A DNA stretch of 23,190 nt from Escherichia coli (GTDB lineage: Bacteria > Pseudomonadota > Gammaproteobacteria > Enterobacterales > Enterobacteriaceae). Below the pieces are notes generated by a model. The model ran no database searches. It was not told the origin of the DNA and saw nothing but the letters and a program-made list of their open reading frames with translations. The stretch lies in NCBI RefSeq assembly GCF_003334815.1, contig NZ_QOWO01000050.1; one strand, given 5' to 3'. Both the position numbers and the translations under genes were made by a program. This document shows, in pieces, positions 16,390-18,648 of the stretch (positions within the stretch are counted from its first letter, which is position 1; every line of letters begins with the position of its first letter).

Positions 16390-16407
16390 CCCTTACCTTT
16401 AAAGCGG

Positions 16408-16539
16408 ATGCGATTTATATCGCATAAGAGTGCAGTACTCATGCCGGATGCGGCATGAGTACCATATCCTTCCTGAAAATCGCGCAAATTCTATATATTG
16501 CAGAGATCATGTAGGCCTGATAAGCGAAGCGCATCAGGC
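16408..16539. repeat. Cluster of REP/BIME-like palindromic units in the glxK-allE convergent intergenic region
   Basis: Three palindromes by eye: ATGCGAT-TTAT-ATCGCAT (about 16408-16425); a perfect 12-bp stem GTACTCATGCCG-GATG-CGGCATGAGTAC (about 16435-16462) containing the REP-like core GCCGGATGCGGC; and GTAGGCCTGATAAGCGAAGCGCATCAGGC (16511-16539), a classical REP consensus in reverse orientation. Confidence 0.6.
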
Positions 16540-16547
16540 AATGTTAC

Positions 16548-16574
16548 AAAAAAAGCCACGGTATAAACCGTGGC
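16548..16574 (-). terminator. Rho-independent terminator for the allE-allC-allD transcript (minus strand)
   Basis: On the minus strand, hairpin GCCACGG-TTTATA-CCGTGGC is followed by seven T (plus strand shows AAAAAAA then the stem). It lies ~45 nt downstream of the allE stop. Confidence 0.6.
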
Positions 16575-16616
16575 AAAATCCAACATAGCTAAAAATAATC
16601 AGGCGAGTGGTATGAC

Positions 16617-17412: not shown

Positions 17413-18648
17413 TTATTTCTGCCAGGCAAGTTGATAAAGCATGAGTGCCAACGTTTTGACCCCTTCGGCAAGGTCGGTAATATTGGTGCGTTCCGCCGGG
17501 TTATGGCTGATCCCGTTGATGCTGGGGATAAAAATCATGCAGGTTGGTACGCGAGGCGCGAAAATTTGCGCGTCGTGCCCGGCATCACTGTGCATCACCC
17601 GGTAATTCAGTTTTTCTCTTTCACACAATTCTGTCAGGGTGGCGACCAGCTCCTTATTCATCGGCACGGGTTCTTCGTCCATCCATAAATCGATATCAAT
17701 ACCAATGTCCATTTCATCGCAAATCGCCCGCATGTCGTTTTCTAACTGTTGGGTGAAATCGCGCAGCACGGCAGCGTCGGTATGACGACAATCAATGGTG
17801 AACGTGGTTTTACCCGGCACCACATTTACCGTATTCGGGCGCGGCTCTACTTTGCCAAAGGTCAGAACCAGCGGATCGCCCATCCTTTTCGCTTTTTCGA
17901 CCGACTGATGGCAAATGCGACTGAAAGCGTAAACTGTATCACGACGATAACCCATCGGCGTGGTGCCTGCATGGTTTGATTCGCCGTTCAGCGTTACCGT
18001 ATAACGACGCTGCCCGACAATTGCATTCACCACGCCAATTGATTGCCCATTACTTTCCAGCACACAGCCCTGTTCAATATGCAGTTCAACAAAGGCTTTA
18101 ATATCCTGACGCGGAGTTAGTGGGGCGTTCGGAAGAGTAAATCCGCAAGCCTTCATCGCATCGACAAAACTATTTCCTTTGGCATCACAGATATTCCGCA
18201 CGTCGTCAGGATTCGCCAGCCCAAAAATATTTTTACTGCCCCAGAAGACATACGGGAAGCGGCTGCCTTCTTCTTCTGCCATCGCCACCACTTCGACCGT
18301 ACGTAGCGGCGCGCCGTATTGCGTTTTCAGCCAGTCAATTGCCAGCCACGCCGCCAGCGCGCCGAATTGCCCGTCAAGGTTACCGCCGTTAACCACGGTA
18401 TCGATATGCGAACCGCTCAGAACCACTTCCTGTGGATATTCGGTGCCATTCAGGCGACCGTATAAATTCCCCACTTCATCGAAACGTGTTTCCAGCCCGC
18501 TTGCTGCCATTCTTTTTTTAAATTGCTGCTGGGTTTCCAGCCATTCCGGCGAATAAAGTAAACGGGTCATCCCACCCGCTGGGTCAGCGCCAAAAGAGGA
18601 AAGCCAGGGCAGCGTTTCTTCTATAGCTTGACGGAAATGTGTAATCAT
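17413..18648 (-). CDS. allC: Allantoate amidohydrolase (M20 peptidase family)
   Basis: Track ORF extends to an upstream alternative start at 18666; the internal ATG giving MITHFRQAIEETLPWL... yields 411 aa. 10-nt gap to allE. Confidence 0.9.
   Translation of the reverse strand: MITHFRQAIEETLPWLSSFGADPAGGMTRLLYSPEWLETQQQFKKRMAASGLETRFDEVGNLYGRLNGTEYPQEVVLSGSHIDTVVNGGNLDGQFGALAAWLAIDWLKTQYGAPLRTVEVVAMAEEEGSRFPYVFWGSKNIFGLANPDDVRNICDAKGNSFVDAMKACGFTLPNAPLTPRQDIKAFVELHIEQGCVLESNGQSIGVVNAIVGQRRYTVTLNGESNHAGTTPMGYRRDTVYAFSRICHQSVEKAKRMGDPLVLTFGKVEPRPNTVNVVPGKTTFTIDCRHTDAAVLRDFTQQLENDMRAICDEMDIGIDIDLWMDEEPVPMNKELVATLTELCEREKLNYRVMHSDAGHDAQIFAPRVPTCMIFIPSINGISHNPAERTNITDLAEGVKTLALMLYQLAWQK

Follow-up and report, generated by a model that had tools for sequence, protein, structure and literature searches.

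The glxK-allE spacer of Escherichia coli as a probable layered convergent-terminator region carrying a single BIME-1

The spacer between the convergent genes glxK (+ strand) and allE (− strand) in the Escherichia coli DNA analyzed here (a stretch of 23,190 nt, hereafter the window) is likely a layered convergent-terminator region, made up of an allE terminator, a glxK terminator and one BIME-1, and not a cluster of three REP elements. The oldest layer is the allE 3′ UTR with its minus-strand intrinsic terminator, whose core is conserved across enterobacterial genera. A separate glxK terminator, consisting of a hairpin called P1 here and a T-run, was added in Escherichia, and it is intact in ∼56% of complete E. 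coli genomes; in the other ∼44% a single ∼119-nt BIME-1 stands in the place of the T-run, and P1 remains as a stem without a U-tract. Within this BIME-1, the y unit has lost its canonical hairpin and CTAC tail, and its 5′ half pairs instead with the left flank in a second palindrome, P2.

The spacer is 227 nt long (16,390–16,616) and 100% identical to that of K-12 MG1655 and K-12-type genomes; the glxK stop codon is TGA in most other haplotypes. The two gene names are taken from the RefSeq annotation (glxK is 541,888–543,033 in MG1655), and they and the bounding stop codons agree with the earlier description of the junction. Four hairpins are present in the spacer, each of which folds better than shuffled sequence (z-scores below are relative to such shuffles, 200 of them for P2); the palindromes first noticed there are all real and correctly placed. 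Both exact copies of the REP core GCCKGATGCG in the 23-kb window lie inside the spacer, as do both of the Rfam matches in the whole window that exceed their gathering scores (ES036 and STnc480). The anatomy summarized in Table 1 accounts for all of the structure in the K-12 spacer that the RefSeq copy used here leaves unannotated. The RefSeq MG1655 record has no repeat_region features anywhere, including between yaaX and yaaA, where the original MG1655 record annotates a REP element; because it is devoid of such features, its silence about a REP at glxK-allE is uninformative. Two other candidate features were rejected: a 52-aa open reading frame (16,430–16,588, + strand) spans the BIME and is missing in short alleles, and a promoter-like site (16,570–16,599, + strand) is at chance level.

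Table 1. Features of the glxK-allE spacer and its edges (positions in the window)
Feature	Position	Strand	Description and basis
glxK stop codon TAA	16,387–16,389	+	Left edge of spacer; open reading frame list
P1, ATGCGAT-TTAT-ATCGCAT	16,408–16,425	+	Orphaned glxK terminator stem-loop, 7-bp stem
BIME-1, whole	16,427–16,547	.	Left flank, degenerate y iREP, L linker, z1 REP, right flank; specific to long allele; paralog alignment
P2, GTACTCATGCCG-GATG-CGGCATGAGTAC	16,435–16,462	+	Perfect 12-bp palindrome; left flank of BIME pairs with 5′ half of y
Degenerate y REP, inverted (iREP)	16,442–16,475	+	5′ half intact (TGCCGGATGCGGC); 3′ half mutated, CTAC tail gone
L linker	16,476–16,510	+	Near-identical to L linker of paralogs; IHF-site position 16,488–16,500
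z1 REP, intact	16,511–16,540	+	Consensus score, fold; GTAGGCCTGATAAGCGAAGCGCATCAGGC is 16,511–16,539
allE 3′ UTR and intrinsic terminator, STnc480 homolog	16,548–16,616	−	Terminator scan, fold, Rfam RF02068
Conserved core: A/T-run, hairpin, AAAATCCAACATAGCTAAA (minus-strand RNA UUUAGCUAUGUUGGAUUUU)	16,548–16,593	−	Five-genus comparison
allE stop codon	16,617–16,619	−	Right edge of spacer

By its sequence, the repeat element in the spacer is one BIME-1 (RIP or RIB in earlier papers). Each of the 5426 complete E. coli genomes has paralogs that cover at least 80% of the segment 16,428–16,545, at dispersed, extragenic places that number from 17 to more than 40 per genome, and in the rows sampled they are 78–86% identical to it. 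The element is ordinary for E. coli, as the earlier note had supposed. Alignment with eight paralogs (mscS-fbaA, rnpB-yhaC, rnr-rlmB, ysaA-avtA, ugpB-livF, yaaX-yaaA and two others) reveals a common order of left flank AGTGCGCTTTGTTCA, inverted y unit, ∼35-nt L linker AAAAnCnCGCAAATTCAATATATTGCAGAGATCAT, z1 unit beginning with GTAG, and right flank AATTTTGC. The glxK-allE copy aligns with the paralogs over its whole length. It has y and z1 in inverse orientation on either side of the conserved long linker, the conserved flank motifs, a single copy and a convergent extragenic spacer as its location, and it fits the published definition of BIME-1, z1 plus y in single copy, separated by an L linker that is long and conserved and in many cases includes an IHF site (PMC3333891).

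Consensus sequences for the y, z1 and z2 types of REP were built from the paralogous copies, and the rest of the 23-kb sequence, taken window by window, served as the null. The z1 unit scores 28 of 30 against its consensus, a value reached by no random window, and is invariant among E. coli long alleles; its fold has stems of 7 bp and 3 bp with an AA bulge between them (−12.9 kcal/mol, z −3.0). The tetranucleotide GTAG that is required of a REP 5′ of the stem foot (PMC3333891) lies directly there, at 16,511–16,514. The y unit matches 25 of 33 consensus positions, and since its score of 19 lies above the null maximum (13), the region is y-homologous. All of its differences (eight substitutions and one gap) are in the 3′ half, the foot reads CCTG where the family has CCTAC, and the required tetranucleotide is missing. 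The left flank is altered as well; the L linker and z1 are near consensus. Unlike that of a typical BIME-1, this y unit is a relic whose 5′ half has come to pair with the left flank.

Compared with the family, the L linker here has an additional mismatch in the core of the IHF site (TCAA to TCTA; ATTCAATATATTG in the family and ATTCTATATATTG here). The site has two mismatches to WATCAANNNNTTR, and the window as a whole has 226 such matches where 222 are expected, so that IHF binding, which had been proposed for this junction from the general properties of REP clusters, is uncertain; it is possible, judging from the altered core, and probably weakened. The parallel proposal of gyrase binding was imprecise, as the preferential gyrase cleavage that has been reported concerns BIME-2 elements (PMC6379681), a different class from the BIME-1 present here. 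The L linker also gives rise to the Rfam match to ES036 (CssrF) at 16,476–16,518, which barely passes its gathering score (38.1 bits against 37.6). In that model the consensus is the L linker of BIME-1 continued into GUAGGCCU of the z1 REP, and the match marks a repeat-derived family and is no evidence for a discrete sRNA gene here; a literature search for ES036/CssrF returned unrelated papers only.

P2 folds at −22.2 kcal/mol (z −6.1), and none of the 200 shuffled sequences folds as well. In folding, the canonical y hairpin cannot form in the glxK-allE copy and P2 is the only option. Most paralogs fold best as the canonical hairpin (−21 to −23 kcal/mol), and two of the eight as the alternative hairpin of flank plus y; relative to the family consensus, P2 was created by about seven substitutions. 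The decayed y form is present in Escherichia sp. E1V33 as well. Variation in P2 was followed through eight long-allele haplotypes, including that of E1V33. The pair 16,437–16,460 is A-T in K-12, O55:H7 and strain H2, G.T in EC98 and 20-16, and G-C in APEC37, KV7 and E1V33, and a C-to-T change at 16,463 forms a thirteenth pair in some haplotypes; the stability of the stem ranges from −19.4 to −23.6 kcal/mol. The G.T state pairs solely in glxK-sense RNA, and is suggestive of constraint at the RNA level, though it concerns one covarying pair and probably one or two events.

There is a substantial chance, somewhat short of even, that P2 is functionless, having arisen neutrally through decay or when template switching during replication "corrected" a quasi-palindrome, and that the BIME is a passive passenger in the spacer. 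The pairing of flank with y pre-exists in the family consensus, so few steps were needed to reach P2; there is a single covarying pair, and the variant is unique to this locus. In the literature searched, no transcript 3′ ends, mRNA half-lives, IHF or Hfq data were found for the E. coli locus, and glxK and allE go unmentioned in the main text of a Term-seq paper (PMC9023263). Against neutrality, a stem of −19 to −24 kcal/mol has been held across haplotypes, one of its states being the G.T intermediate, whose pairing is confined to the glxK-sense RNA, and the substitution at 16,463 extends it, whereas the adjoining P1 decays over the same haplotypes. No U-tract follows P2, and it is therefore no canonical terminator.

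Comparison of the junction across strains, a check that had been suggested for it, separates spacers of 227 nt from spacers of 128 nt. The full-length long form is present in 2367 of 5426 complete E. coli genomes (∼44%), including K-12 and O157:H7, and every genome sampled from the remaining ∼56% has a spacer ∼99 nt shorter. The two alleles differ by replacement: ∼119 nt specific to the long form (about 16,426–16,544) stand where the short form has ∼20 nt (ATTTTTTTACCTGAATTTAC), and neither segment has left a remnant in the other allele. The BIME-1 sits at the place of the T-run and ∼13 further bases of the short allele. Flank haplotypes are common to both allele classes, which suggests recombination, and because the long form is also carried by Escherichia sp. 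E1V33 and, from the right junction, by E. whittamii, the polymorphism is old. No IS insertions were present at the junction among the sampled genome rows.

In the short alleles of IHE3034, Z1323PEC0010 and FDAARGOS_1276, six or seven T residues directly follow P1, and by the terminator scan P1 is a + strand terminator in two short alleles (L002 and L003). The same scan of the window finds no + strand terminator there; AAGAGTGC follows P1 in place of a U-run. Since P1 is followed by T6–7 in short alleles and the BIME and T-run segments interchange, P1 is the stem of glxK's own intrinsic terminator, and in K-12-type strains glxK would appear to lack a canonical + strand terminator. The P1 hairpin of the window folds at −9.0 kcal/mol (z −3.1). 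In the sampled short alleles, all of which have the T-run, its energy is about −8 to −15 kcal/mol (−8.4 to −14.7), and in long alleles it is −9.0 (K-12), −7.9 (APEC37) or −3.6 kcal/mol, at which it is effectively lost (EC98 and E1V33). This erosion fits relaxed constraint after loss of the U-tract; it rests on few haplotypes, because P1 is intact in ∼78% of long-allele genomes by a rough count from an evenly spaced listing.

The short allele is probably the older one, the BIME having arrived by an insertion with a small replacement. The opposite, that the long form is ancestral in Escherichia and short alleles arose by excision or deletion with filler sequence, is unlikely. E. coli shares the long form with E1V33 and E. 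whittamii, decay of the y unit goes back to the common ancestor of these copies, and neither allele contains the other's specific segment, all of which would suit a long ancestor. Such a loss, however, would have had to generate six or seven T residues precisely where an existing hairpin ends and so produce a textbook terminator, and P1 has no evident role when the T-run is missing and erodes in several long alleles. A third allele, in strain E69 of a divergent lineage, is moreover built on the right half of the short type. It has two P1-type hairpins around a ∼70-nt insert with a G+C-rich palindrome, and T6 after the second of them; none of the 5426 RefSeq genomes has an allele of this type.

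The spacers of Citrobacter and Klebsiella (76–85 nt) and of Salmonella LT2 (79 nt) have the shared hairpin alone; in Citrobacter and Klebsiella it starts 9–12 nt past the glxK stop codon. Superficieibacter has a different glxK terminator. Klebsiella oxytoca and Raoultella have an inverted REP pair of their own between the conserved core and allE, and together with the E69 insert this indicates that the glxK-allE site repeatedly attracts small repeats. A scan of a genome collection found at least 11 loci; the main E. coli and Salmonella representatives are not among these, and the scan is of no use as evidence of absence.

The earlier note had described three REP-like palindromes in a BIME-type cluster beside a convergent terminator, and had named alignment to REP consensus families as the test that could refute it. 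Read literally, this description is very unlikely to be correct. All three palindromes exist, P1 and P2 have the octamer CGGATGCG in common, and the third palindrome is indeed the classical REP unit that had been recognized, the intact z1. P1, on the other hand, scores 7–8 when compared with the three REP consensus types (y, z1, z2), a value equaled by 15–36% of random windows, and it occurs with its T-run in alleles that have no REP at all; P1 was rejected as a REP on these grounds. The perfect 12-bp stem of P2 is present as described and is not a REP stem, being a re-pairing built on the decayed y unit. The alignment test thus fails for P1, finds a degenerate y in the P2 region and is passed by the third palindrome, and the paralog alignment defines just one y-L-z1 unit. 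What stands is a REP/BIME element; what does not is the cluster, since the element is a single BIME-1 composed of a degenerate y, the L linker and z1. A hairpin that lies beside a REP need not itself be a REP, and the count of three was an over-call.

The layered reading preferred here retains the minus-strand intrinsic terminator, which had been recognized correctly. Its 8-bp stem (16,574–16,555) has six G-C pairs and is followed by T7 (16,554–16,548), the stem and U-run that are expected of an intrinsic terminator, and it folds with −15.4 kcal/mol (z −6.2). The core that includes it is identical in Escherichia, Citrobacter, Klebsiella, Raoultella and Superficieibacter, save for the loop, the first base of the stem and the length of the A-run. 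The GlxK proteins of those genera are 67–77% identical to that of E. coli, and the conservation of the core, judged from these sequences, is greater than a terminator alone usually shows.

The same part of the spacer is matched by the Rfam family STnc480 (RF02068) at 16,544–16,610 on the + strand, with 87.6 bits (gathering score, 72). STnc480 was described in Salmonella as a candidate between glxK and ylbA (allE) with the orientation "-> <- <-", was enriched 18.5-fold by Hfq co-immunoprecipitation (74 reads against 4 in the control), and was negative ("nd") in a Northern blot with the probe GCCACGGTTCTCACCG (Sittka 2008 supplement, PMC2515195). In the literature searched it was found only in that supplement and was absent from the main texts. 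The probe has the sequence of the + strand and therefore detects minus-strand RNA, which, with the reported orientation, puts the STnc480 RNA on the allE strand. The Rfam model appears, then, to lie on the strand opposite to that of the original report, a point for the database. The allE (ylbA) 3′ UTR and its terminator resemble the family in passing its gathering score, with the differences that the orientation of the model is opposite to the reported strand and that the read data are those of Salmonella; the STnc480 homolog is most simply a 3′ UTR/terminator fragment of the allE mRNA. That STnc480 is instead a plus-strand sRNA starting at the A-run, antisense to the allE 3′ UTR, is suggested by the strand of the RF02068 match and is most improbable, as the original table places the candidate on the ylbA strand, the probe detects minus-strand RNA, and the + orientation would give a 5′ hairpin without a U-tail where the minus orientation gives a hairpin and then U7.

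What the spacer may do is read here from its observed anatomy, repeat-family membership, polymorphism and conservation. Transcripts of glxK in K-12-type strains probably continue past P1 into the BIME, whose hairpins P2 (−22 kcal/mol) and z1 could hold back 3′-5′ exonucleases, cause pausing or help Rho to stop transcription. REPs and BIMEs elsewhere are reported to stabilize mRNA 3′ ends and to attenuate transcription (introduction of PMC3333891). The glxK 3′ end resembles those cases in having stable hairpins downstream of a coding region without a U-tract terminator, and differs from them in that the repeat appears to replace part of an intrinsic terminator and not just to add to a 3′ UTR. 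A further, linked pair of proposals is doubtful: that P2 was reshaped by RNA-level selection for the glxK 3′ end, and that STnc480 is an Hfq-dependent sRNA from the allE 3′ UTR. If both were true, a decayed REP unit, reshaped after displacement of a U-tract, would define or protect the 3′ end of the glxK mRNA; the two common alleles would terminate glxK transcripts differently and would not have the same antisense read-through into allE; and the invariant 19 nt of UUUAGCUAUGUUGGAUUUU, directly 5′ of the allE terminator, would be an sRNA seed tied to allantoin catabolism.

The element in this spacer is of an ordinary and previously described kind, in the best-studied of genomes, and the current understanding of REP and BIME biology is unchanged by it; the displaced terminator, the remodeled y unit and the strand of STnc480 are useful details and no surprises. 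The locus does offer a natural experiment, in which about half of the strains have a canonical glxK terminator and the other half have a BIME-1 in the place of its U-tract, and a swap of the two alleles would be a direct test of the effect of a BIME on mRNA 3′ ends and on convergent read-through.

E. coli strain E69 (CP089930.1) carries a third allele of the convergent glxK-allE junction with a 232-nt spacer, in which an insert of about 70 nt containing CCCCCTCTCCCCAAAGGGGCGAGGGG lies between two hairpins of the P1 type (the stem of glxK's own intrinsic terminator). The core of this insert has ∼97% matches elsewhere in other genomes, and we take the insert to resemble a boxC-type repeat. No allele of the E69 type was found among the 5426 complete RefSeq E. 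coli genomes searched. Strain APEC37 (NZ_CP127303.1) has the long, BIME-1-containing allele, and its glxK gene is annotated as a frameshifted pseudogene. The MG1655 RefSeq copy NC_000913.3 has no REP or repeat_region features at the places inspected (loci L001 and L006), including the yaaX-yaaA spacer, which visibly contains an unannotated z2-L-y element (L006 1066–1172).

The corresponding spacer of K. oxytoca and Raoultella planticola is 217 nt long and contains a Klebsiella-type inverted REP pair (…CCTTACCCGGCCTAC … GTAGGCCCGCGCCAGCGGGC) that sits on the allE side, where it separates the conserved core (see table) from the stop codon of allE. This REP pair is an independent insertion, a separate colonization of this convergent junction in another genus. 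A 12-kb contig (JAJUHI010000052.1) from a metagenome-assembled genome labeled Sporobacter termitidis has a Klebsiella/Raoultella-like glxK-allE junction whose spacer shares the REP pair of K. oxytoca, and its AllE protein is 84% identical to that of E. coli; it is probably an enterobacterial contig that was mis-binned into a Firmicutes genome.

Features of the glxK-allE junction, in window coordinates
Feature	Position	Strand	Description
ORF, 52 aa	16430–16588	+	GTG start; runs across BIME-1 and terminator
Conserved core	16548–16593	minus-strand RNA	UUUAGCUAUGUUGGAUUUU + hairpin + U7

The 52-aa reading frame was rejected as a gene because it is missing from the 56% of genomes that have the short allele. 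In a 241-nt fold of the plus-strand RNA, bp 16463–16476 (CAUAUCCUUCCUGA, directly 3′ of the perfect palindrome P2) are predicted to pair over a long range with bp 16599–16614 (UCAGGCGAGUGGUAUG, by the allE stop codon), which would enclose the L linker, the z1 REP and the terminator hairpin; this predicted pairing may be due to chance. With regard to allE expression, a genomic SELEX study of four minor sigma factors lists RNA polymerase holoenzyme binding peaks at 543470–543560 for three of them, inside allC and upstream of ylbA (allE) (PMC5493296). From their location, allE may have an internal promoter. If the published coordinates follow, as they apparently do, the older MG1655 numbering, these peaks presumably fall near window positions 17600–17700.

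An Rfam search matched STnc480 (RF02068), a Salmonella candidate RNA, to the plus strand at 16544–16610, whereas the original report assigned the RNA to the ylbA/allE strand and used a plus-strand sequence as Northern probe (supplement, Sittka 2008, PMC2515195); the Rfam model thus appears to represent the strand complementary to the RNA as first reported. The conserved core is identical across Escherichia, Citrobacter, Klebsiella, Raoultella and Superficieibacter; only the loop of the hairpin, the first base of its stem and the A-run length differ. The GlxK proteins of the latter four genera are only 67–77% identical to that of E. coli. The core looks like a 3′ module for Hfq binding that includes a conserved single-stranded stretch, and this stretch may be a seed of a 3′ UTR-derived sRNA.
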